Under the pieces are notes generated by a model. It saw nothing but the letters and a program-made list of their open reading frames with translations, was not told where the DNA came from and searched no databases. Both the position numbers and the translations under genes were made by a program. This document shows, in pieces, positions 358 through 62,183 of a stretch of 64,000 nucleotides of DNA (its first letter is position 1; every line of letters begins with the position of its first letter). Origin of the DNA: an uncultured Candidatus Saccharibacteria bacterium (GTDB lineage Bacteria > Patescibacteriota > Minisyncoccia > Phycocordibacterales > UBA9973); NCBI GenBank assembly GCA_964404925.1, contig CAYOLW010000001.1, positions 105,408 to 169,407 of the forward strand, read 5' to 3'.

Positions 358-1458
358 TTAGTTTGAATAATCGCTTACTGTAATTATCCTCTCATTTTCG
401 TGCGGTCCGTGCTCTATTTTAACCCAAATAATAATGGCGTTTTCAGAAGCTTTGCTCAAGAAGCCTGGAACTTTGTTAGCCCATTCGATCGAGAAGACAT
501 GCCCTTCGTTTATTTTATCCAAAAGACCTAATTCTTCTAGTTCATTTTCATCTGTTAGTCTCCAGGTATCGAGATGGTATAGCTTTGGATTTTTTTCTGC
601 ACTGTATGATCCGGCTACTGTTTCTATACTATATTCTTTTTCAATTATGAAAGTGGGGGATTGCACTGCACCTTTAATGCCGAGTGCGCTAGCAATACCT
701 TTCGTCATTTCTGTTTTGCCTGCGCCGAGCTCACCCTCAAGTGCTAAAATGACTGATTTGTATCCTAAATAATGTTTATACTTACTGATCAATTTAGCAC
801 CGAAAGATTGTGTTTCTTCACCATTCTCGGTTTTGAGTTTTTCTACTTCGGTTAACTTCATGTCGCCTTGGCGTAAAACCACCTCGCCACCTAATGTTGT
901 GTCTACAACAGTAGAAGGTTCACGTTTTGGTAGTTCTCCAGCGTCAATAATTAGATCAATTAATTCTTTTTGTTTATCTGAGATGTTTTCTAGGATATCA
1001 GAAATATCGTAGGGTTTTTTCTTGTACGATGCGTTAGCTGATGTGGCGGTAATAGGGTAACCAAGAGTGGATACAATTTTGCGTACAAGCTCGTAGTCAG
1101 GTATTCGTATACCTAAGGTTCCAGTTTCAGATTCAACCCCGGATGCTACAGTGTGTAGTCCACGAGAAACTACAGTGAGCGGTCCGGGCAAGAAGTTTTC
1201 GTACAAGTTGCGGGCAGTTTCGTTAATCTCAACATACTTTTGCGCCATGTCGATAGAATCAACAGCAATAGAAAGAGGCTTGCCTTCACGTCTGGTCTTG
1301 TATGAGAGTAATTTATTCACTGCTTCTTGGTTGGTAGCCATTGCACCGATTCCATAAACAGTTTCTGTAGGGAAAATGACCAATCCGCCACTTTGTAGTG
1401 TTAGGACAGCAGCTTCTATCACAGCTTCTTCATTGTCTATTTTTAGCACTTTCGGCAT
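358..1458 (-). CDS. tsaC/tsaE: Fusion protein: an N-terminal YrdC/Sua5 (TsaC) threonylcarbamoyl-AMP synthase domain and a C-terminal TsaE (YjeE) P-loop ATPase domain.
   Basis: The N-terminal half carries the YrdC motifs ([25 protein letters not shown]). The C-terminal half carries the TsaE motifs (GELGAGKT Walker A, SPTF, HLDTWRL). It lies immediately upstream of tsaD. Confidence 0.8.
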
Positions 1459-4495: not shown

Positions 4496-4522
4496 AAAGA
4501 GCCCCCTAAAAGGGCTTTTTAA
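4496..4522 (+). terminator. Intrinsic terminator-like hairpin (agagcccc...gggcttttt)
   Basis: A GC stem followed by a T-run, seen directly in the sequence. Confidence 0.5.
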
Positions 4523-4540
4523 ATAACAGAAAAATTTAAA

Positions 4541-4729
4541 ATGTCTAAAATCACTGAATATTTTAAGGAAACAAAGACTGAATTAACACACGTTGTGTGG
4601 CCGACAAGGAGTTTGACCATTTTTTACACTATTGTGGTTATTATTTTGTCTGTTTTGGTGGCTTATTTCTTGGGTGCATTTGATGCATTATTCTCATTCG
4701 GACTTAAGCAAATTATTTTCTTTAGATAA
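4541..4729 (+). CDS. secE: Preprotein translocase subunit SecE
   Basis: A 62-aa protein with a single C-terminal TM helix, located directly upstream of nusG in the conserved secE-nusG-rplK order. Confidence 0.85.
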   Translation: MSKITEYFKETKTELTHVVWPTRSLTIFYTIVVIILSVLVAYFLGAFDALFSFGLKQIIFFR

Positions 4730-45583: not shown

Positions 45584-46342
45584 CTAGCTCATTTCCTGAA
45601 TAATTTGATCCATCATGAGTGCTGCCGGGAGGCGAGCGACATCAAGCGGTACAAAGTAATCTCCTTCAACCTTGCTTGCGTCCGCTGATACGGATATACC
45701 TGCAGCATCAATCATTTCTTTATCATTTAGATTGTCTCCAATAGCCAGCACTTCACCCTCGGCCAAGCCCAGGTAGTTCCTGTATGCAGAGAGGCCCACT
45801 GCTTTGTTCTGAATTCCTTTGACCCCGATGTCATATGCTTCGCCGTTCCAGATGGCATACAGGCGGTCATTCTCGGCGACGATGTTTTCAATCTCTGGGA
45901 CTCTATCTGTACAATGGATGGTGATTATTAATTCTTTGGGTTCAAAGCCTTTCACGTTTTCGTGTCTGGACTCGATGCCGCGTAATTTCAAAAAAGTTTC
46001 TTGCAAATGGTCAAAGCTGTTCACGTGCTGGATTATTTCTCCGCGGTGCCAGGTGGCGCTGCCGTTCTCGTATGTGAGACTGGTAAAGGGAAGTATGTCT
46101 CGGAAAACTTCTTGCAGCATATACAACCCGCGTCCAGAATTGATATTGATCATGAACCCTAGTTCTTTTAATTTCTTGATCTGCTCAATCTGCTCGGGGG
46201 CGATGTGTTTCGTCTCGAGTGTTGTAATGTTATTTGATTGTTTTATATTCGTTCCACGGGGGACCAATACTCCATCTACATCGAAAACTATTAGTTTAAT
46301 ATTTTTCAAAACATCCTTCGTTAGTTCCTCAATTGGTTTCAT
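45584..46342 (-). CDS. HAD-IIB (Cof-like) hydrolase
   Basis: LIVFDVDGVL (motif I) and GDNLNDKEM (motif IV) are present. Confidence 0.7.
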   Translation of the reverse strand: MKPIEELTKDVLKNIKLIVFDVDGVLVPRGTNIKQSNNITTLETKHIAPEQIEQIKKLKELGFMININSGRGLYMLQEVFRDILPFTSLTYENGSATWHRGEIIQHVNSFDHLQETFLKLRGIESRHENVKGFEPKELIITIHCTDRVPEIENIVAENDRLYAIWNGEAYDIGVKGIQNKAVGLSAYRNYLGLAEGEVLAIGDNLNDKEMIDAAGISVSADASKVEGDYFVPLDVARLPAALMMDQIIQEMS

Positions 46343-46376
46343 GAGTTAATTCTAAGCTTTTTATTCCTAGCGTCAA

Positions 46377-47570
46377 ATGGGAAAATTATGTTATTATAAC
46401 AATATGCAAAAGGAAACTGTTCCATTTGTGAATAAAAATAATCTAGTTTGGTGTCGAGAAAAATCTGGTTTAACTATTAATCAGGTCTATGAAAAAGCTA
46501 AGTGGTCATCAAAAACTCATAAAATTGAAAAATGGGAAGCCGGTTCAGATTTTCCTACCATAGATGACTTAAAAAAGCTTGGTAAAATTTACAAAAAGGC
46601 TTGGACACTTTTTGTTTTTGAGCAAGATTTGAAAAATTTAGATTTCATGGTAATGAAAGATTTTCGTGGCTGTATCTCAGATTCTAAAGGGGAAGAAAAG
46701 AGTGAAATAATTCAGTTTCTAAATGAAATAGAACGTCGACAACTATTTGTCATTGAATTCTCTAATGCCCTTGAAATTATCGGTAATAAAAGTTTTGGTT
46801 CGTTGACTGAAGTAAAGGATGTTAATGTCGTTGCGAATAAAATAATCCAAAATCTTAATCTTAATATGGAAGAATTTCGCAGAAAGAAAACAAGATTAGA
46901 AGCCTTAAATTTCTTGCAAGAAGAATTGGGGCGAAATAATATATTTGTTTCTTTTTCTAGCACCAATCCACATAAAAAAATAAGTCTTGAACATATGCGT
47001 GGGGTTTTAATGAGGTCTTTTCTGGCACCAATTATTGGTATTAATTCTGCAGAAAAGTCGGTGGGCGCTAAGATTTTTACTATTTTTCATGAGCTTGCAC
47101 ACCTGTACACAGAAAAGGTTGATCATGATGTTTTAATTGACACTATTAATTTTCGAGATTTAGGTAAGCGTAATACAAAAGAGGGCTTGTGTGATCAGAT
47201 AGCTGCAGAAATATTAGTACCCCGTAATATTCTTGTTGAATTAAAAGGCACTTCATTCAATCCAGAGATTGTTAAGAAATATTGTATTTATTTGAAAGTT
47301 AATCGTGAGCCTTTTTTAATACGTGCAAAAGAACATGGTTTAATTAGTGAACAAGAATTTAACTCATTAAAAAATATTTCGGTTGAAGAACAAATTAAAA
47401 AAAATAAAAAAGGTAATCCGGATGGCGGTTTATTGCATATTTTGAAAAATGGCAAGTCTTTTATGCGGCTTGTTAATTCTCTTTACTCAACAGGCCTAAT
47501 ATCATATTCACAAGCACTAGGTGCTTTAAATACAAAATCCAATGCTTTTAATAAATATGTAATTAGATAG
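46377..47570 (+). CDS. XRE-family HTH domain fused to an ImmA/IrrE-family (COG2856, DUF955) zinc metallopeptidase
   Basis: The N-terminal HTH reads LVWCREKSGLTINQVYEKA. HELAHL (HExxH) lies in the C-terminal domain. Confidence 0.7.
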   Translation: MGKLCYYNNMQKETVPFVNKNNLVWCREKSGLTINQVYEKAKWSSKTHKIEKWEAGSDFPTIDDLKKLGKIYKKAWTLFVFEQDLKNLDFMVMKDFRGCISDSKGEEKSEIIQFLNEIERRQLFVIEFSNALEIIGNKSFGSLTEVKDVNVVANKIIQNLNLNMEEFRRKKTRLEALNFLQEELGRNNIFVSFSSTNPHKKISLEHMRGVLMRSFLAPIIGINSAEKSVGAKIFTIFHELAHLYTEKVDHDVLIDTINFRDLGKRNTKEGLCDQIAAEILVPRNILVELKGTSFNPEIVKKYCIYLKVNREPFLIRAKEHGLISEQEFNSLKNISVEEQIKKNKKGNPDGGLLHILKNGKSFMRLVNSLYSTGLISYSQALGALNTKSNAFNKYVIR

Positions 47571-47574
47571 ATTT

Positions 47575-48063
47575 ATGGAAGTAAACAAATCAGCACTATA
47601 TGTTTTCGATAGTAACTGTTTTATTGAGCCTTGGAATAAGTTTTATTCTTACGAATTTTTTGAGCAATACTGGGATAAGTTTTTAAAAAAAAGTTTAAGC
47701 GATTGCACAGTCTTAATTCAAGAAGAAGTTTATAATGATATTCTAAAAAAAGATGATGGTCTTAATCGTTGGTTGAAAGGTTTTAAGATAGAAATTGTTA
47801 AAACTGATATAAGTATAACTCGAGAAGTTGCGGCTATAAATAATAAATTCCCAAAGTTGACAAAAGAATATAGTGGTAGATCTTTTTCAGATCCTTTTGT
47901 AATAGCACTAGCTAGGTTTCGTAAGGCAACAGTTGTAACCATGGAAGATTTCGGTAGTGAAAATAAACCAAAAATACCATTTGTATGTGACCAAATGGGT
48001 GTTAAATGTATTGATTTATTTAAGTACTTAAAGATTGAAGGCGTATCTTTTTCAATCAAATAA
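47575..48063 (+). CDS. DUF4411-like PIN-like nuclease-fold protein, partner of the ImmA/IrrE gene
   Basis: YVFDSNCFIE, SDPFVIALA and VVTMED fit the PIN-like acidic-residue pattern. It lies 4 nt downstream of the ImmA-HTH gene. Confidence 0.6.
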   Translation: MEVNKSALYVFDSNCFIEPWNKFYSYEFFEQYWDKFLKKSLSDCTVLIQEEVYNDILKKDDGLNRWLKGFKIEIVKTDISITREVAAINNKFPKLTKEYSGRSFSDPFVIALARFRKATVVTMEDFGSENKPKIPFVCDQMGVKCIDLFKYLKIEGVSFSIK

Positions 48064-48239
48064 TTTTTTGTTGTGGACTTAGTAGCGAAAAGTGCGAACC
48101 AAATGAGAGCCTTTATAAATCAATGGTCAGAGTTCTTTAAACATAACAAACCAAACTTTCAAACAACCTAAAACCTTTATTTTAAAACATTTTATTGCTT
48201 ATTAGATATCACAATAAGAGTATTGAATACTATCTATTA

Positions 48240-49517
48240 CTACAGGTTCTTAAAATAAAAGTCTGGCAGAACAACTTTTAATTCTTCGTTAGCTGCACGA
48301 TAGCGATCTGGCGAGTGCGGAGTTGATGGATATTTATCAACGTCTTGAGGATTAGGTCTTTCTATTAGTTTTATGTCAAAAGTATTAAGTATTTCCTTGT
48401 CTTCACCGACAACTAACCTGTTTGTATATTGTAAGTAGGAATTGTTTGTTATTAATATAAGTCTAGCTATTTCATTTCCAGCACTAATAGCTTTTACCTT
48501 AACAAACTGTTTAAAGTAAGAGTAATTATCTTGGACATTAATGTATTTTGATGCTGTAACAGCAATACATATAAGTCTATTAGGTTTATATCCCAGCCTT
48601 GATAGTTCAATGTAATCAAGATTGGCTTGTCTTAATATGAGCTTTATTTTTCTCATAGTCATTTCGGGATATCTTATGTGTATGTACTCTAAAAACTCAG
48701 TAAGTTTTTTATCTTCACCTATAGTGTCAGTTGGATCAGCTTCAAATACATCAGCTACAAAATCTTGTAAATTACTCTCACTTTTTTTATTAAAAAACTC
48801 AATATAATCAAAACATTTTAAGTATGTTTCAATGTTGTCTTCATAACTTTTATTTGATACAGCAACAATAACGGTAACTTGTTTTTGTAAGGTATTTTTA
48901 GTTAAAAACTGTCTAAATGTTTCTAAAAAGAAAAGTCCATCTGGTCCTGATCTATCTATGTCTTCAATAACAAAAACTATCTTATCTTTATCCACTGCAT
49001 TAATAAGTGAGGTAAAAATATCTTGTATTTCAAACACTCGTCTTGCTGGAGACTTATCAGCAAAGTATTCAAGATTTTTTACAAGTCCAAATAGTGGTTC
49101 AAGTAACTTAGGTAACCCAAAAGCAGTAGTTGCAACATTCAAGATAGAACCAGCGGTATTTATTCCTAGTTTCTTGTCTTTACCAGATTGCCCATCAACT
49201 TCTCGTTTAACTTTTTCAAGCATACTTAGTTGTCTAGCTGTTTCAAGGATTAGCCCGTCCCATAATTCTTTGCGCTCTGGAAATTGCCAAGCATCAAAAT
49301 GGACCCACTGCTCAGTTGTTTCTTTTTGTTTTCTAATCTGTTCAATCAAGGTACTCTTTCCAACACCAAAAGGTCCGATAATTCCTATTATTTGAGAACC
49401 TTTCTTTGATTGCAACTTCTCAGTTAGCGTACTTACCGAAGAAGAGATATTAAGATAGTCTTTATCAGAAACTTTTTCTTCTAGTAAATCAACATTTTTT
49501 ATAAAACCATTTTTCAT
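48240..49517 (-). CDS. KAP-family P-loop NTPase
   Basis: IGIIGPFGVGKSTL (Walker A) and IVFVIEDIDRSGPD (the KAP-type DDLDR Walker B) are present. It lies 15 nt downstream of the Abi-alpha::Nudix gene. Confidence 0.7.
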   Translation of the reverse strand: MKNGFIKNVDLLEEKVSDKDYLNISSSVSTLTEKLQSKKGSQIIGIIGPFGVGKSTLIEQIRKQKETTEQWVHFDAWQFPERKELWDGLILETARQLSMLEKVKREVDGQSGKDKKLGINTAGSILNVATTAFGLPKLLEPLFGLVKNLEYFADKSPARRVFEIQDIFTSLINAVDKDKIVFVIEDIDRSGPDGLFFLETFRQFLTKNTLQKQVTVIVAVSNKSYEDNIETYLKCFDYIEFFNKKSESNLQDFVADVFEADPTDTIGEDKKLTEFLEYIHIRYPEMTMRKIKLILRQANLDYIELSRLGYKPNRLICIAVTASKYINVQDNYSYFKQFVKVKAISAGNEIARLILITNNSYLQYTNRLVVGEDKEILNTFDIKLIERPNPQDVDKYPSTPHSPDRYRAANEELKVVLPDFYFKNL

Positions 49518-49532
49518 AACGCCTAAATCTTA

Positions 49533-50933
49533 TTAATTAGATTTAATTATTAAAGTATTTTTTACTTCTTTAAAAATAGCCAACATATCATCACTTAAAA
49601 TTAAATTTATGAACTTCTTTTTGTCTTCTTCAGATAAGTTTGGTAAATCGTCAATTTTCCAAGCTTCAAAACCTTCTGCTTTACCTTCTTCAACTTTTAG
49701 ATCTGAGATAGGACCTTCATAAAGATAGGCATACTGGCTACGGATTGTGTTATTAGTAAGTTTAGTTACCTCATCAAAACTTTCCTTTCTCATTTTTCTT
49801 AGAAAAGTTAGCTTTGAAAGATCAATATCAATACCTGTTTCTTCTTTGCATTCTTTTACAGCGGTTTCTTCATATGACATTTTGGGTTCAACGTGTCCTC
49901 CAACAGTAGCGTCTAATTTATCAGGATAGGTATCTTTGTTTTTTGCTCTATGTTGAAAAATAATCTCTCCTTGAGGCGTAATAAACCAGATATGTATTTC
50001 CCGATGGAGAAGTCCGTCTTTGTGTATTTTTGAACGAGTTTGAAGACCCACTACTTTATCATCCTCATCAATTACCTCAAGGATTTCTTGGTATTTATAA
50101 TTTGATATTGAGTAGTGTTCTTTTAACCACTCAGTATACCCATCAACCTTTTTTGTTTTCAGATGTTGCAATATTTCTTTACCAGCAACAGAAATTGCAT
50201 AAAAAGTAGGTATTCTTAAATCTGCATTATTTTCTATGATTGGTTCAAAAACAATTTGCTCATCAAAGTAATCAATTATATACGGTAAGCCATCAGGGTT
50301 AGATATATTTCTAGTCATATCGTTTGGTAAAAATAAGCCTAAACTTTGCAGTGCTTGGAGACTACCAAAATGTAAACCTAATCCAGACATCATTTCTTTA
50401 ACATTTTCACTGCCACTGAATAAATCTTTTGGAAGTTGCTCATTATTTAACAATAGCCCAGATATTTTTTCAAAAAGCTCTAGTTCTTTTTTACCTATGG
50501 ATTTTAATGTTTGCAAAGTGCTCATTGAATAAGTTTCAGGATTGTTGTATTCTCCAGCGATTATTTTTGCAATCAAATCTTGAACCTCTTCATTTGAAAC
50601 TTCTTTTGCGTGTTCAAGAAGTCCCCAGAAGACGTCATTGTCATCTTTTATATTATTTTCAGAACTCGTAATCAAGTCTTTGGTTTTAAGTAAAGCATTA
50701 CCCAAGTTGGCATATTGGCGACCCATTTTTTGAGCTTCCGCTTGTAACCAAAAAGGTTTTTCTAAAAGTTCCCATTTTGTTTTAACCTTGTCAGCTTCAA
50801 TATCTCCCTCAGCTTCAAAAACTTTTATGGATTTACCTGTATACTTTGTAATTACAAAATCAACAAACTTATCAGCCACCTTTGTTAAGGTCGCTTTTCC
50901 TAGATCTTTTAATGGTTGAGGTAAATCGCTCAT
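49533..50933 (-). CDS. Fusion protein: an N-terminal Abi-alpha-like (DUF4393-like) domain and a C-terminal Nudix hydrolase domain
   Basis: The N-terminal region has ...DVFWGLLEHAKEVSNEEVQDLIAKIIAGEYNNPETYSMSTLQTLKSIGKKELELFEKISGL, which resembles Abi-alpha. The C-terminus has the Nudix box GGHVEPKMSYEETAVKECKEETGI. The start is the ATG at 50933, preceded by an extended -10 TGTTAGAAT. Confidence 0.6.
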   Translation of the reverse strand: MSDLPQPLKDLGKATLTKVADKFVDFVITKYTGKSIKVFEAEGDIEADKVKTKWELLEKPFWLQAEAQKMGRQYANLGNALLKTKDLITSSENNIKDDNDVFWGLLEHAKEVSNEEVQDLIAKIIAGEYNNPETYSMSTLQTLKSIGKKELELFEKISGLLLNNEQLPKDLFSGSENVKEMMSGLGLHFGSLQALQSLGLFLPNDMTRNISNPDGLPYIIDYFDEQIVFEPIIENNADLRIPTFYAISVAGKEILQHLKTKKVDGYTEWLKEHYSISNYKYQEILEVIDEDDKVVGLQTRSKIHKDGLLHREIHIWFITPQGEIIFQHRAKNKDTYPDKLDATVGGHVEPKMSYEETAVKECKEETGIDIDLSKLTFLRKMRKESFDEVTKLTNNTIRSQYAYLYEGPISDLKVEEGKAEGFEAWKIDDLPNLSEEDKKKFINLILSDDMLAIFKEVKNTLIIKSN

Positions 50934-50998
50934 AATTGCTATTCTAACATTTTTAAGATTAAAAAATAAGTCTAAAAATGGTATAATTAGGTGTATAA

Positions 50999-51370
50999 AT
51001 GGTGGAAAAAACATATAACTTTAATAATCTTAAAATCCGATCAAAAGCTATTGCAAAAGCTCGTATTTCAACTCGTCCAAAGACATATAACTCTAAGAAA
51101 AAACGCTTGGAAGACATACAAAGAGAACTGATAAAATCAGAACTTATAAAAGAAGGATTTTTAGACCAATTAAAGCCACATATGCCAAAAATAACAGAGG
51201 CTGTTATTCAGAGTGCTTGTGATCCAAGCTCTAAGGGTACAAGTGACAGGAGAATTATATTTCAAGCGGTTGGTATTTTAGGAAAAGATACTCAAGTAGA
51301 GCCAAGCCAGACAATAGCGGATGTGTTAGCTGAGATTTTTAGTGAAGAAGTAGTAAACAGTAAAAGCTAG
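50999..51370 (+). CDS. Hypothetical protein (island cargo)
   Basis: An ORF with ATG, transcribed divergently from the Nudix gene and preceded by TGGTATAAT. No family recognised. Confidence 0.4.
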   Translation: MVEKTYNFNNLKIRSKAIAKARISTRPKTYNSKKKRLEDIQRELIKSELIKEGFLDQLKPHMPKITEAVIQSACDPSSKGTSDRRIIFQAVGILGKDTQVEPSQTIADVLAEIFSEEVVNSKS

Positions 51371-51418
51371 GAAAATCTAGGGAATTATAAATATATCCCT
51401 TGATATGCTATAGGTAGT

Positions 51419-51634
51419 CTATGTTTTTTCTTTATTAGAAGTTATTTTGTAATAATTTGGAAATAGAACTTTAACTTTGTCTTTTTTAGTGGCTAATTTA
51501 GCCAAAAATGGCTTCATAACGAGCTTTGGACGCTCAGATATAGATTTGTTCCATAACCACTTTTTATAGCTATTTATGACTATTTTACTTAAGAAACTAG
51601 TCATACGACTATTTCTTAGATCTAAGCTTTTCAA
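51419..51634 (-). CDS. Hypothetical small basic protein
   Basis: The ORF overlaps the upstream membrane-protein ORF by 26 nt in another frame. It could be real or a frameshift remnant. Confidence 0.25.
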   Translation of the reverse strand: MKSLDLRNSRMTSFLSKIVINSYKKWLWNKSISERPKLVMKPFLAKLATKKDKVKVLFPNYYKITSNKEKT

Positions 51635-52007
51635 CTTTATAAGCTTTATATAAGAAAAATACGGTAAGCCCAGTAAAAAAGATTATAAAGTAAAGGATAT
51701 CTGGACTACTTGAAAAGTCACCATTTATATCTCTTCTACTTTCAACATATCTAGCTAAAATAATAAAACCTAAAATAATAGAATATATTTTTGTTGTGAT
51801 AACCAAACCAACACTAGCTTTCTTGATAAGTAGGTAAGAAAATATAAATCCTAAAATAGTAAAGACTAAAGGTGCAGCTAAGGATAAGAGTATTAAAAAA
51901 ATAGCTGCAACACCTCTGTTTGTTTTGTGCCATTTAAGACTTTTGTATTGTTCTACTTGCTTTATAAAAGAACTTTCTTTTTGCTTGATTTCTTCAGTTG
52001 TGATCAT
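51609..52007 (-). CDS. Hypothetical membrane protein
   Basis: A 132-aa protein with 3-4 predicted TM helices. Confidence 0.4.
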   Translation of the reverse strand: MITTEEIKQKESSFIKQVEQYKSLKWHKTNRGVAAIFLILLSLAAPLVFTILGFIFSYLLIKKASVGLVITTKIYSIILGFIILARYVESRRDINGDFSSSPDILYFIIFFTGLTVFFLYKAYKVEKLRSKK

Positions 52008-52671
52008 ATTTTTTGTATAAAAAATAGGCTAATAATTTAGCCTATAAACAAATATAGGCAACCCAGTGGGTGCTCACAAAACCAATAGACAAGCTACTGA
52101 TTATGCTTCCCACATAGGTCGCCTATGCTTGGCACAATCAGTAACTAACCCTTTTTAAGGGTTCGCTTGATGTCTTTTTATTGGTTTTGTGAGCAAGTTA
52201 ATGATAACATAATTTGATTTTATTTTTAAGTTATAAATGTTATAATGTACCTAACTAGAGATTTTCTAGTTAGGTCTGACACAACCTTAAGCTCAAAAAA
52301 GACACTTTTTAATTTTTACAATAGTCTTGAGAGTAATAATGTGATTAAGCTAGTTTTGAAACATAAAAATGTACCCACTAGTTAAAAGAAAGCTAGCCGA
52401 GTTGTATGCTTTATTTATGTTAGAAAATGCACAAAGTAGCTTAGTGTGAAGTTGCAACTTATCACCTCGTGATATTTCCAATCAAGTACACAGAGTAAAT
52501 AAATAAATCCTCCTGCCTCTTACAGGAAATCCTTGAAGATAGTATCTCCAAGCCGATTAAGGGTTTATTTGCCACTCTGTCTAGCTGATTAGACGTATCG
52601 CAAAGACACAGCCTTTATGGGCTGTTTTTTTGTTTTATTAGGTGTCACACAAACCCACTATGCCAAACTAA

Positions 52672-52830
52672 AATGACATTAGAGGAGTTTAAAAAACATT
52701 TTAAAAACAAAAATGTAAATGATGAGCGTATAAAAGAAATACGCGATTATTTGTATGCAATTTCAAGAGAAATTGTCTTAAACAATTTAAACGAATACGA
52801 AAAACAGATAAAAGAAAAAGGTGTAAAGTA
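52672..52830 (+). CDS. Small ORF (52 aa) immediately upstream of the recombinase. It could be a recombination directionality factor or Xis-like helper, or a spurious ORF.
   Basis: It runs from an ATG at 52672 to a TAG at 52828-52830 (MTLEEFKKHFKNKNVNDERIKEIRDYLYAISREIVLNNLNEYEKQIKEKGVK). The assignment rests on position only. Confidence 0.25.
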
Positions 52831-52843
52831 GTATAATGAATAT

Positions 52844-54490
52844 ATGAGTAAGCATAAAAAAACTATTGTTAAAAACCCAAAACAGCAATTTTCTCTTGAT
52901 GGATATGTAGGTTTGCCTTATTTACGTGTTTCAAGTAAGAGACAAGAAATTGAGGGTACTGGCTTACAAAGCCAAGAAAAAAGATGTTTAATGGAGCTTT
53001 CTAATATAGGTATTCCTCACGAGAAAAGTTTTTTTGATAGCTATACAGGGGGTGGGGATTTTATGAACCGACCAGCAATGAGATCTTTACTTGCGTATGT
53101 TGATGCGCATCCTCATAAAAAGTTTGTAGTCATTTTTGATGATTTAAAAAGATTTGCTAGAGATACCGAATTCCACTTAAAGCTTAGACTGGCTTTTAAA
53201 AATAGAGGTATAGTTCCAAAATGTTTAAACTATAATTTTGACGACAGTCCAGAAGGGATGTTTGTTGAAACTGTTTTGGCTGCATCAAATGAATTAGAAA
53301 GAAAACAAAACGCTAGACAGGTAGTGCAGAAACAAAAAGCACGACTTGAGGCTGGGTATCGCGCGTTTCCGTCTGTTAAAGGGTACACAAGAGTAAAAGA
53401 TCCTATTCACGGAAAGATTGATATTCAGAACGAACTTGCTATATATGTAAAAGAAGCTTTAGAAGGATTTGCAAGTATGCGTTTTGTTCACAAAATTGAT
53501 GGGGCTAAGTTCTTACAAGAAAAAGGAGTAATAAGTAAAAAACAAAATGCTGATAAAGCAATTTCTACTTTTGATAAGATGCTAAGAGAAGTCTTCTATG
53601 CTGGATACATAGAATACGAGCCTTGGGAGGTAAATAGAAGGGTTGGACACCATAAGAGCTTGATTGGTCTTGATACTTTTAATAAAAACCAAAATAGGCT
53701 GATTAAAAACGCAGTTTCTTTTACTAGGCAAGATATACGAGAAGGGTTTGAGTTAAGGGGATTAATAAACTGTGCATACTGTAATAAAAAGTATACTGGT
53801 GGACCTTCAACTGGTAGGAGTGGTAAAAAATATAATCTATATAAATGCCCAACAGTAGGCTGTGAAAGATATGGTAAAAGTATAAGTACAAAAATTGTTC
53901 ACACGCATTTTGAAGACTTATTAAAAAATATAAAACCGTGCGAAGAAATAATTGATCTAGCTAAGAGTGTTTTTGAAGAAGTGTGGAACGAGGAAATTAA
54001 AAACAGATCAAGCCTGCATAGTTCAATCATTAAGCATAAAAATGATTTAGAAAATGATATCTCAACTTTTACTGACAGAATATCAAAAGCAGTAGAAACA
54101 GGGGCAAGTGAACTTGTAATAAAACAATATGAAAAGCAAATACATAAAATTGCCACTGAATTAGAAGATCTTGAAGAAAACATAAGCTTAGCGTATGACT
54201 ACAGTATTCCTTATAGAACCGCTAGTGAAGAAGTGTTAGGTGTGTTAAAAAGCCCTTATGCTGTATGGAAAAATTACAATCCAGCACAAAAACAAAGGTT
54301 CTTCTCTTTTATATTTGAGACTAATTTAATTTATAGTAAAGAAGAGGGTTATAGAACACCAAGTTATTCTTTACCTATAAGGATATTTGAGGAAATAAGT
54401 ACCTCAAAACCCCTTGATGTGGAACTGGGGGGAATTGAACCCCCGTGCAGAAAGTGTGTGCCAAGAAATCTACATGTGTATTTTGTTTAA
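52844..54490 (+). CDS. Large serine recombinase (resolvase/integrase family). The last ~23 codons are read across the antisense of the tmRNA 3' end.
   Basis: It has an N-terminal resolvase catalytic domain (YLRVSSKRQE with the catalytic Ser; FDDLKRFARD), then a recombinase domain, a zinc-ribbon-like CxxC...CxxC region (CAYCNK...CPTVGC) and a coiled-coil. Confidence 0.8.
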   Translation: MSKHKKTIVKNPKQQFSLDGYVGLPYLRVSSKRQEIEGTGLQSQEKRCLMELSNIGIPHEKSFFDSYTGGGDFMNRPAMRSLLAYVDAHPHKKFVVIFDDLKRFARDTEFHLKLRLAFKNRGIVPKCLNYNFDDSPEGMFVETVLAASNELERKQNARQVVQKQKARLEAGYRAFPSVKGYTRVKDPIHGKIDIQNELAIYVKEALEGFASMRFVHKIDGAKFLQEKGVISKKQNADKAISTFDKMLREVFYAGYIEYEPWEVNRRVGHHKSLIGLDTFNKNQNRLIKNAVSFTRQDIREGFELRGLINCAYCNKKYTGGPSTGRSGKKYNLYKCPTVGCERYGKSISTKIVHTHFEDLLKNIKPCEEIIDLAKSVFEEVWNEEIKNRSSLHSSIIKHKNDLENDISTFTDRISKAVETGASELVIKQYEKQIHKIATELEDLEENISLAYDYSIPYRTASEEVLGVLKSPYAVWKNYNPAQKQRFFSFIFETNLIYSKEEGYRTPSYSLPIRIFEEISTSKPLDVELGGIEPPCRKCVPRNLHVYFV

Positions 54491-54812
54491 AGTTTTAAAC
54501 TCATAGATTATTAAACGAACAAAATATCTTTGAGTCGATTCCTAAGTTTTCGTGAGTTGTGCGGACGGGCAACTCCTTATTCCGATAATATTACACCTTA
54601 ACCCATGCATCGGAAGTCGATGGGCAAGACGCCAGATTCGACTAAGCGAAAGCTGGAGCAAAAGCGAAATCCTTCATACCGAAGTATGGAGATTTCATTC
54701 CTGCCTTAGATGCTAATTTTGCAATTAGACTTTGAACGCTTATTAACGAGCATGCGTTCATCCTCGACATGCATCAAGACACGACGGCTTACTGTCTATG
54801 CCTGGCAGTCCC
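54419..54812 (-). ncRNA. ssrA: tmRNA (ssrA)
   Basis: On the minus strand the 5' end is GGGACUGCCAGG and the 3' end is GGGGGUUCAAUUCCCCCCAGUUCCAC (tRNA-like T-arm). The acceptor stem has the G3:U70 wobble typical of Ala charging. The conserved UGCAUGUCGAGG box and PK1 are present, followed by an internal ORF ending GCU UUC GCU UAG. It is adjacent to smpB. Confidence 0.85.
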
Positions 54813-57721: not shown

Positions 57722-57795
57722 TCCACCCTCATGGATTCGAACCATGGACCCCAGAGGTATAAGCTCTGTGCTCTAACCAACTGAGCTAAGGGTGG
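57722..57795 (-). tRNA. tRNA-Ile with anticodon UAU (74 nt; CCA not encoded; C1:G72; discriminator A)
   Basis: A cloverleaf can be drawn by eye: acceptor CCACCCU/AGGGUGG, D-arm GCUC/GAGC, anticodon stem CAGAG/CUCUG with loop CUUAUAC, and T-arm CAUGG-UUCGAAU-CCAUG. Confidence 0.7.
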
Positions 57796-61579: not shown

Positions 61580-61611
61580 AGACTATATTATAGCATTAGT
61601 TTTGTTTGGTG

Positions 61612-61698
61612 CGGATAGGGTGGGATTCGAACCCACGGTTCTTTTTACAGAACGGCGGTTTAGTAAACCGCTGCCTTAAGCCTCTCGGCCACCTATCC
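61612..61698 (-). tRNA. Class-II tRNA-Ser (G73 discriminator, long variable arm) with an apparent anticodon ACU
   Basis: The acceptor is GGAUAGG/CCUAUCC. The D-arm GCC-GAGAGGCUUAA-GGC is nearly identical to E. coli tRNA-Ser. The anticodon stem is GCGGU/ACCGC with loop UUACUAA. The variable arm is GUUCU-GUAAAA-AGAAC, and the T-arm is GUGGG-UUCGAAU-CCCAC. Confidence 0.7.
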
Positions 61699-61784
61699 GT
61701 CCACCCAATATACAACAAGATTATTTTTTCACAAAGGCTCAATGGAAAATATAAATATATATGCTAAACTAACCACGTCTAAAC

Positions 61785-61876
61785 GGAGACGTGTCAGAGT
61801 GGTCTAACGTACCTCTTTGCTAAAGAGGCAGGGGCTTCAAAACCCCTCGGGAGTTCGAATCTCCCCGTCTCCGCCA
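61785..61876 (+). tRNA. Class-II tRNA-Ser(GCU)-like gene with encoded CCA and a non-canonical D-arm
   Basis: The acceptor GGAGACG/CGUCUCC and the G73-CCA end are perfect. The anticodon stem is CCUCU/AGAGG with loop UUGCUAA. The variable arm is GGGG-CUUCAAAA-CCCC and the T-arm is GGGAG-UUCGAAU-CUCCC. No standard 3-4 bp D-stem can be drawn; the D region instead folds as a 6-bp stem with a 4-nt loop. Confidence 0.55.
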
Positions 61877-61960: not shown

Positions 61961-62111
61961 CATGAAAGGTACATTAATATTTTGCACCCTCGCTCTCGCT
62001 GCCTTATCTTTTATTGGCAAAATCGCTTTGCGTAGAAAGAAAAATTCTTCCATAAGAGAAGAACCGACGGATAATACTGGCACATTTATAGGGAGCGCAG
62101 GGCCCCAATAA
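61961..62111 (+). CDS. Small putative secreted or membrane peptide (49 aa) with a signal-peptide-like N-terminus
   Basis: MKGTLIFCTLALAALSFIGKIALRRKKN.... It is followed by a hairpin at about 62139-62166. Confidence 0.3.
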
Positions 62112-62183
62112 CAAAAAAACATTCAAAAACATTTAGCGGCCCACCTTCGGTGTCCGCTTTTTTATTTATGTTATAATTCCGAA

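Follow-up and report, generated by a model that had tools for sequence, protein, structure and literature searches.

Two divergent serine tRNA genes near recG

The stretch of DNA analyzed here, called the window throughout, comprises the 64,000 nt from position 105,408 to position 169,407 of contig CAYOLW010000001.1 (assembly GCA_964404925.1). It is part of the chromosome of a bacterium of the candidate phyla radiation, has a G+C content of approximately 38%, encodes EF-Tu, a ribosomal-protein operon ending in SecY, EF-G, SmpB, the transfer-messenger RNA (tmRNA), FtsH, and RecG, and contains two divergently oriented tRNA-Ser genes, one of which has the anticodon ACU. Genes for tRNAs were detected with ARAGORN and with the Rfam model RF00005, whose gathering score is 29 bits. 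ARAGORN recognized four RNA genes in the window, namely the tmRNA, a tRNA-Ile(UAU), a tRNA-Ser(ACU) on the minus strand (called as tRNA-Ser(act), 61611-61698), and a tRNA-Ser(GCU) on the plus strand (tRNA-Ser(gct), 61785-61876). Both tRNA-Ser genes also exceeded 29 bits with RF00005, the ACU gene with 55.7 bits (E = 2.8e-09) and the GCU gene with 44.5 bits (E = 3.2e-06).

The ACU gene, which we delimit to 61612-61698 on the minus strand, is a class II tRNA-Ser gene with orthologues in 35 recG-linked loci. It has a 7-bp acceptor stem, G73, a long variable arm with a 5-bp stem, a standard T-arm, and a D-arm of the normal bacterial Ser type with three base pairs and G13·A22. In agreement with a preliminary description of this DNA, these identity elements and the RF00005 score mark it as a tRNA-Ser. 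G73 is followed by CACCA, and a CCA end is not directly encoded. The 5-bp anticodon stem carries the loop U32 U33 A34 C35 U36 A37 A38 (UUACUAA), in which A34 (61664), C35 (61663), and U36 (61662) form the anticodon on the minus strand. The anticodon ACU had already been noted in the preliminary description, and both direct reading and ARAGORN gave the same result. As ARAGORN kept the act and gct calls apart, no loop had been mis-delimited, and the two genes are not both GCU genes.

The GCU gene at 61785-61876 on the plus strand is likewise of class II and belongs to a family termed G2 type, which is represented by 36 distinct orthologues from 40 loci. Its anticodon G34 C35 U36 (61819-61821, plus strand), evident from the sequence and from ARAGORN, lies in the loop UUGCUAA, and the gene includes the CCA end (61874-61876). 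As had been reported, pairing is perfect in the acceptor, anticodon, variable, and T stems, and the D-stem is the sole deviating part of this tRNA. In the standard register, C11-G24 is its only Watson-Crick pair, and the remaining positions are U10·U25, A12·C23, and G13·A22. The two divergent genes are separated by an A+T-rich spacer of 86 bp (61699-61784), which presumably holds the promoters of both. A consensus scan, which is weak evidence, pointed to a promoter-like TTGTGA-16-TATATT immediately 5' of the ACU gene (61734-61707, minus strand).

With RecG as an anchor, we compared 80 loci from species-representative genomes, all of which are metagenome-assembled genomes of Paceibacteria/Patescibacteria with a RecG identity of 77-55%. 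L-numbers denote the compared loci and contigs, and the window together with the 80 recG loci gives 81 sequences. ARAGORN detected tRNA-Ser(ACU) near recG in 35 of the 80 loci, which makes 36 genes when the window is included. By database name, the carriers range from Nomurabacteria to Tayloriibacteriota and Kaiserbacteria, with a RecG identity from 77% down to 55%. The loop UUACUAA is invariant in these 36 genes, with A34 encoded in every case. When the 33 distinct ACU sequences from the 35 recG-linked loci were aligned, 94.6% of the stem cells were paired, and the acceptor, anticodon, and T stems as well as all three standard D pairs reached 100%. Double-sided, i.e., compensatory, changes were found at 18 pairs, and the observed values were reached in none of 500 shuffles. 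The variable stems of 4-5 bp show compensatory changes in both the ACU and the GCU families, and G73 is invariant in both alignments. The invariant loop and the compensated stems together indicate that tRNA-Ser(ACU) is under purifying selection. As a side aspect, part of the ACU tRNA, with the anticodon arm, is repeated as a 46-nt copy at 4511-4556 of locus L011, between the intact ACU and GCU genes.

Fifty GCU genes were found near recG, 40 loci having the G2 type of the window and 10 loci a canonical type, termed G1. The G2 type combines the loop UUGCUAA with the odd D-arm, whereas the G1 type has a canonical D-arm and C32, with the loop CUGCUAA in 9 of the 10 loci and a variant in L055. In all 34 ACU loci that hold any GCU gene, this gene is of the G2 type. 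ACU and G2 genes thus co-occur in 34 of the 36 ACU loci, whereas none of the 10 canonical-GCU loci has an ACU gene (Fisher p = 8e-7). The pair is divergent in 25 of the 34 loci, and the median gap is 181 bp, compared to 86 bp in the window. One suggestion of the preliminary description was that the job of tRNA-Ser(GCU) has been split between two genes, which fits this co-occurrence as well as the lack of ACU genes in the canonical loci. The two kinds of loci also differ in composition. The G+C content of third codon positions (GC3) is 0.32 in ACU loci and 0.46 in canonical-GCU loci, and the share of AGU among the AGY codons is 0.70 and 0.56, respectively (p = 8e-5).

In a neighbor-joining tree of RecG, which represents a single gene, loci with a canonical GCU gene are interspersed with ACU carriers, as exemplified by L014, L025, and L034. 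L014 and L025 have the highest GC3 of the set. The canonical GCU genes are too alike across distant lineages for a reversion from the G2 type, and a resident second copy, a horizontal replacement, or an error of the single-gene tree are the possibilities for their presence within ACU lineages.

Relatives of the ACU gene in metagenomes and phages

In most bacteria, tRNA-Ser(GCU) is the sole reader of the AGY codons. Metagenomes were scanned with the anticodon arm of the ACU gene, with A or G allowed at position 34. Among the 120 matches listed, 103 were ordinary tRNA-Ser(GCU) genes with the same design of the D-arm and anticodon arm, and 10 were ACU genes. As the ACU gene shares this arm with mainstream GCU genes, it can be described as a bacterial tRNA-Ser(GCU) backbone with a single G34-to-A substitution. 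The D-arm, the anticodon stem, the loop residues U32, U33, A37, and A38, the long variable arm, and G73 are all common to both, and the differences are A34 in place of G34 and the presence of a second, divergent GCU gene alongside. The idea that U32, as opposed to C32, confines the partner GCU tRNA to AGC (prompted by PMC10853795) was rejected, as mainstream GCU tRNAs that are sole readers also have U32. In two of the metagenome contigs, L125 and L153, a tRNA-Arg(UCU) directly adjoins the ACU gene. The GCU tRNA next to the ACU gene of L153 (3801-3884) is aberrant, with a length of 84 nt and the loop CUGCUAU.

A scan of IMG/VR with the same anticodon arm and A34 also gave 120 matches listed, to which the following viral numbers refer. 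At least 116 matches on viral contigs were identified by ARAGORN as tRNA-Ser(ACU), with 76 distinct sequences, and 70 of these genes lie within arrays of at least four tRNAs. The contigs have a size of up to 323 kb and a median G+C content of 0.376. A Ser(GCU) gene accompanies the ACU gene in only 3 of 116 viral loci. Other A34 tRNAs in these loci are tRNA-Arg(ACG), which is present in 17 of them, and a single Ser(AGA). The arrays of these uncultivated, A+T-rich phages otherwise consist mostly of U34 tRNAs, such as Thr(UGU), Gln(UUG), Glu(UUC), Arg(UCU), Lys(UUU), and Ile(UAU), and AGU is the top Ser codon in the viral ACU loci (3,472 of 11,713).

Among cultured phages, tRNA-Ser(ACU) genes are present in the jumbo phages Salmonella 7t3, Salmonella Munch, Klebsiella fENko-Kae01, and Erwinia Hallingskeid. 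The gene of phage 7t3 is located at L325 1494-1584, corresponding to MK773491.1 329274-329364, and the other three at positions 194-284 of L328, L329, and L330. All four have the loop CUACUAA and are annotated merely as 'tRNA-Ser', and these phages offer an experimentally tractable tRNA-Ser(ACU) system. Apart from this 7t3 group, BLAST searches with whole tRNAs against cultured phages mostly returned other Ser isoacceptors (UGA and GCU), and two abundant ACU sequences of IMG/VR had no close cultured relative in BLAST.

The Paceibacteria ACU genes cluster together and are 81-89% identical to the nearest viral or non-syntenic sequence, with two kinds of exception. The ACU gene of L075 and a sequence of the IMG/VR 'viral' contig L229 share 96% identity, and about 14 ACU genes are 90-98% identical to the metagenome contig L147, which has its own set of G2, ACU, and tRNA-Ile(UAU) genes and looks like a Paceibacteria relative. 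In view of this clustering, the chromosomal ACU genes do not look like recent phage insertions.

Proposed decoding of AGU and AGC

As A34 in a split codon box has been called universally missing (PMC8007984), an artefact was the prior expectation, i.e., one of the two genes could have been a pseudogene, position 34 could have been a sequencing error, or AGR could have been reassigned from Arg to Ser. We regard this set of explanations as extremely improbable. A34 recurs in all 36 ACU genes from independent assemblies and also in metagenomes (10 contigs) and among viruses (at least 116 contigs), and, judged by this recurrence, the A34 of the window is genuine and not an error, and it is as unusual as had been stated. 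A pseudogene is opposed by the compensatory stem changes in both the ACU and the GCU families. Both families maintain all stems through many such changes, and the alternative view in the preliminary description of a degenerate or regulatory tRNA-like element can therefore be abandoned.

A change of the genetic code was addressed with codon-aware alignments of RecG, FtsH, and SmpB. AGA aligned with CGN codons in 44.5%, with AGA in 22%, with Lys codons in 13%, and with Ser codons in only 1.6% of cases, and AGG behaved similarly, so that both align with Arg and Lys codons and not with Ser codons. AGY codons aligned with TCN codons in 21% of cases. The genetic code is standard, with AGA and AGG encoding Arg and AGY encoding Ser, and the AGR-to-Ser reassignment was thus discarded. 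AGA is not avoided either. It occurs 155 times in the window and accounts for 0.31 of the Arg codons in the ACU genomes.

We think it likely that the ACU gene encodes a functional elongator tRNA-Ser with an unmodified A34 that serves as Watson-Crick reader of AGU, while its GCU partner covers AGC. In such a system, A34 would stay unmodified and read AGU by an A·U pair, and the divergent tRNA-Ser(GCU) would read AGC and still be able to wobble to AGU. From its identity elements, the ACU tRNA is predicted to be charged with serine by seryl-tRNA synthetase (SerRS). Recognition by SerRS depends on the long variable arm and G73 but not on the anticodon, whereas the synthetases for the other split NNY boxes (Asn, Asp, His, Tyr, Phe, and Cys) and for Ile use anticodon bases. 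As SerRS is blind to the anticodon, the Ser AGY box would be the sole split NNY box in which an exchange of G34 to A is free in terms of aminoacylation. This lack of an aminoacylation cost would account for the evolution of ACU as the only one of the 'forbidden' ANN anticodons of split boxes. The window also contains an open reading frame (358-1458, minus strand) in which Sua5/TsaC and TsaE domains for the biosynthesis of N6-threonylcarbamoyladenosine at position 37 (t6A37) are fused. In view of this gene, A37 is probably t6A, which fits both Ser tRNAs with their U36-A37 sequence.

Codon usage in highly expressed genes is in agreement with a Watson-Crick reader of AGU. For this set, we took the EF-Tu, EF-G, S12, S7, and S10-spc ribosomal-protein genes of the window (3,982 codons). 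In the six NNY boxes that are read by G34, the T-ending fraction was 0.475 in the set and 0.65 in the rest of the window (p = 8e-16), and five of the six boxes were individually significant in the block of EF-Tu and ribosomal-protein genes, the exception being Cys (p = 0.25). For AGY, the T-ending fraction was 0.68 (25:12) in the set and 0.67 in the rest of the window (p = 1.0), and within the highly expressed set AGY differed from the other NNY boxes (p = 0.018). AGY alone was therefore not shifted toward C in highly expressed genes, as a Watson-Crick AGU reader predicts.

Several points weigh against this assignment. The signal in the highly expressed genes comes from 37 AGY codons of one genome, and in a gene-level quartile test that spanned the loci, the expected trend was weak and local G+C content was a confounder. 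When whole loci are considered, AGU is no richer than other NNU codons (0.70 versus 0.69), and phage loci likewise show no AGU excess over other NNU codons. As AGU does not exceed the other NNU codons, the ACU tRNA appears to track A+T richness and not a special demand for AGU, and the idea of such a demand was given up. Since the other NNY boxes manage with G34 alone, the advantage of a separate AGU reader is putative. Furthermore, we infer the unmodified state of A34 from the specificity of Escherichia coli TadA and from codon usage.

To our knowledge, tRNA-Arg(ACG), which is converted to ICG by TadA, is the only widespread A34 tRNA in bacteria. Like tRNA-Ser(ACU), it has a gene-encoded A34 within a U33-A34-C35 core, which is the core of the TadA substrate. 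In principle, TadA or a relative could thus convert A34 of tRNA-Ser(ACU) to inosine, and the resulting ICU anticodon would read AGU, AGC, and marginally AGA, making the tRNA a broad AGY reader like the I34 tRNAs of eukaryotes. In line with this, the 17 viral ACU loci among the matches listed that also have tRNA-Arg(ACG) suggest that the hosts presumably possess TadA, and the loop CUACUAA of phage 7t3 differs by one base from that of tRNA-Arg2. However, tRNA-Arg(ACG) belongs to a four-codon box, where I34 can read U, C, and A without a change of the amino acid, whereas the A-ending codon in the box of ACU encodes Arg. As I34 pairs with A and AGA is a frequent Arg codon, inosine in the ACU tRNA would cause miscoding of AGA as Ser. 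The GCU gene, which is kept in 34 of the 36 ACU loci, would be redundant if ICU read AGC. Moreover, residues 32 and 36 distinguish the invariant loop UUACUAA from the TadA substrate CUACGAA. In E. coli, an ACU anticodon was not modified by TadA, and marginal TadA substrates were blocked by changes at position 32, 37, or 38 (PMC11066159). A deaminase motif was absent from the open reading frames of the window and the 80 loci, which is weak evidence, as these sequences amount to about 1.3 Mb and not to whole genomes. In contrast to tRNA-Arg(ACG), inosine is therefore improbable in tRNA-Ser(ACU), and we consider a broad ICU reader of AGY quite unlikely.

Phage tRNAs have been proposed to counter the cleavage of host tRNAs. 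The main purpose of the ACU variant could accordingly lie in defense or counter-defense, i.e., in evading an anticodon nuclease or another tRNA-directed toxin that targets tRNA-Ser(GCU) or in substituting for the targeted tRNA, with AGU decoding as a by-product. The strong presence of ACU genes in phage tRNA arrays would fit this role, as would the near absence of GCU genes beside them (3 of 116 loci among the matches listed). In Paceibacteria, however, the gene resides in the chromosome, keeps its synteny with recG, and has been conserved vertically, and the codon usage of highly expressed genes suggests that it is routinely employed in translation. A nuclease specific for tRNA-Ser(GCU) was not identified in this analysis. 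Overall, we attribute only a small probability to such an escape function, and decoding of AGU by an unmodified A34 is the explanation that we favor.

The existing literature is compatible with an unmodified A34. With an orthogonal ACU tRNA in E. coli, AGU was reassigned by 9.4% and AGG by 0.36%, and AGC and AGA remained below detection (PMC11066159). The same study found inosine in just 3 of 15 A34 anticodons and counted both Ser A34 anticodons as authentic A34, and it stated that studies of unmodified A34 relied on engineered tRNAs because natural cases are rare (PMC11066159). The engineered tRNA has the same anticodon as the natural tRNA-Ser(ACU), and its AGU-specific, uninosinated behavior is that proposed here. 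However, it is artificial, based on an archaeal tRNA-Tyr body, and carries another amino acid, whereas the Paceibacteria tRNA is natural and conserved.

Natural tRNAs with an unmodified A34 have been described for Mycoplasma, i.e., tRNA-Thr(AGU), and for yeast mitochondria, i.e., tRNA-Arg(ACG), and Leuconostocaceae have extra A34 tRNAs (PMC11066159, PMC8007984). These tRNAs resemble tRNA-Ser(ACU) in their genomic A34 and in their A+T-rich or reduced genomes, but they all serve four-codon boxes, whereas tRNA-Ser(ACU) serves the split Ser/Arg box, where a different amino acid would be inserted if codons ending in a purine were misread. A further parallel is tRNA-Ile(UAU) of Mycoplasma mobile (PMC3575796), where a Watson-Crick reader of an A/U-ending split-box codon also replaces a solution by wobble or modification, although in another codon box and with U34 instead of A34.

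According to a review, all ANN anticodons in split boxes except that of Ile are universally missing, tRNA-Ser(ACU) is listed among the genes absent from all life, phage tRNA sets are said to lack the same genes, and, on this basis, A34 is argued to be incompatible with split boxes (PMC8007984). The ACU genes of Paceibacteria and phages are at odds with this listing. Full-text literature searches in open-access papers and bioRxiv did not turn up any naturally occurring tRNA-Ser(ACU). The tRNA-Ser(ACU) is an ordinary member of the tRNA-Ser family that has an anticodon class previously unrecognized in nature. We are evenly divided over the wider statement that a natural split-box tRNA with an unmodified A34 is in use in Paceibacteria and, as an independent development, in many phages, such that AGU and AGC each have a Watson-Crick partner. 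If true, the rule that split boxes are devoid of ANN anticodons would have its first cellular exception. The rule would then seem to be enforced less by an infidelity of A34 in decoding than by synthetases that require G34, with serine, owing to the anticodon-blind SerRS, being the one breakable place. The chromosomal and phage ACU genes together provide a natural system for the analysis of A34 decoding, of a possible indifference of TadA, and of the reasons for the avoidance of this anticodon elsewhere. For annotation, models of codon adaptation in which AGY is taken to be read by G34 wobble would be wrong when applied to ACU genomes.

The D-arm of tRNA-Ser(GCU) and other features of the window

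The D region of the GCU tRNA deviates from the standard in such a way that it can also be drawn as a 6-bp stem with a 4-nt loop, and the preliminary description had compared this arm to that of tRNA-Sec. As it was conceivable that the GCU tRNA truly adopts such an extended D-arm and has a special non-canonical role, we compared both registers in the alignment of 36 distinct G2 sequences from 40 loci. This alignment shows 100% pairing in the acceptor, anticodon, variable, and T stems and double-sided changes at 19 pairs. The minimum-free-energy fold of the GCU tRNA from the window is the extended D hairpin with a 4-nt loop, and 75% of the cells in the D region are paired in the extended 6-bp register compared to 44% in the standard register. 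RNAalifold kept only a 3-bp inner hairpin of the alignment. This inner hairpin, however, is built from A14 and the G18/G19 region, residues that are present in any tRNA D-loop. Free-energy folding was rejected as evidence for the D-arm, as it also yields a wrong hairpin with a 4-nt loop for the canonical ACU tRNA and hence is not diagnostic.

The pattern of changes argues against the extended helix, which shows one double-sided change, compared to three pairs with such changes in the standard register, and is broken in several species, with 11-22 unpaired in 34 and 10-23 unpaired in 12 of the 36 sequences. In the standard register, none of the 36 sequences lacks the 11-24 pair, which occurs in four types (29 CG, 4 GC, 2 UA, and 1 AU). 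Position 12-23 is A·C in 22 sequences and varies among AU (5), GC (5), and UG (4) in the other 14, and 10-25 is mostly U·U, with GU or UA in seven. Some G2 genes, such as those of L024, L058, and L061, even have fully canonical D-stems. As far as the aligned sequences indicate, covariation favors the standard D register over a Sec-like arm with 6 bp and a 4-nt loop.

Two hallmarks of tRNA-Sec (selC) are absent from the GCU tRNA. The anticodon is GCU and never UCA in all 36 distinct sequences, and the acceptor and T stems have a 7/5 geometry with both stems fully paired, in contrast to bacterial tRNA-Sec with its 8-bp acceptor stem and 5-bp T stem. With this geometry and anticodon, the GCU gene does not encode a Sec-type tRNA, and its likeness to tRNA-Sec is limited to the possibility of drawing the D region as a long stem closed by a 4-nt loop. 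The deviation of the D-stem is thus real, and the hairpin is obtained by folding as described, but the Sec-like interpretation is unlikely.

At pairs 10-25 and 12-23, both partners have changed from canonical to conserved non-Watson-Crick combinations in the G2 type. A D-stem with U10·U25 and A12·C23 may be a co-adaptation to the division of labor between AGU and AGC. The tRNA-Ser(GCU) of metazoan mitochondria, which has no D-arm, is a related case, since there too the D-arm of this isoacceptor is weakened and the genome is compact and A+T-rich. However, the G2 type retains the D-loop, G18/G19, and the overall length, and only the stem pairs are replaced by the conserved U·U and A·C combinations.

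Some further features of the window are noted here. The tRNA-Ile(UAU) gene at 57722-57795 on the minus strand (68.6 bits with Rfam) adjoins recG and is present in 56 of the 81 sequences. AUA is very common, with 394 codons in the window, and this combination suggests that a U34 tRNA decodes AUA, similar to the situation in Mycoplasma mobile, instead of a route via TilS and lysidine. The tmRNA gene (54417-54812, minus strand) has an unusually long predicted tag of 26 residues, AKLASKAGMKSPYFGMKDFAFAPAFA. The tags of most relatives have 18-27 residues with a common SPY core, and a tag of 10 residues is predicted for L061. The 3' end of the tmRNA gene is overlapped by a gene for a large serine recombinase (52844-54490, plus strand), near which a KAP/NB-ARC-type NTPase, a DUF2806-NUDIX protein, and a protein with an M78 peptidase domain are encoded. 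The G+C content is 0.31-0.33 at approximately 46000-54490 and approximately 0.38-0.40 elsewhere in the window, and this region looks like a mobile island that integrated at ssrA.

Sub-threshold Rfam matches to a plastid psbI-rps4 element antisense to both tRNA-Ser genes were dismissed as an artefact, as this model spans an antisense trnS. Shortly 3' of the GCU tRNA, a 49-codon open reading frame with a hydrophobic N-terminus (61963-62112, plus strand) is followed by a terminator-like hairpin with a T-run at approximately 62137-62170.

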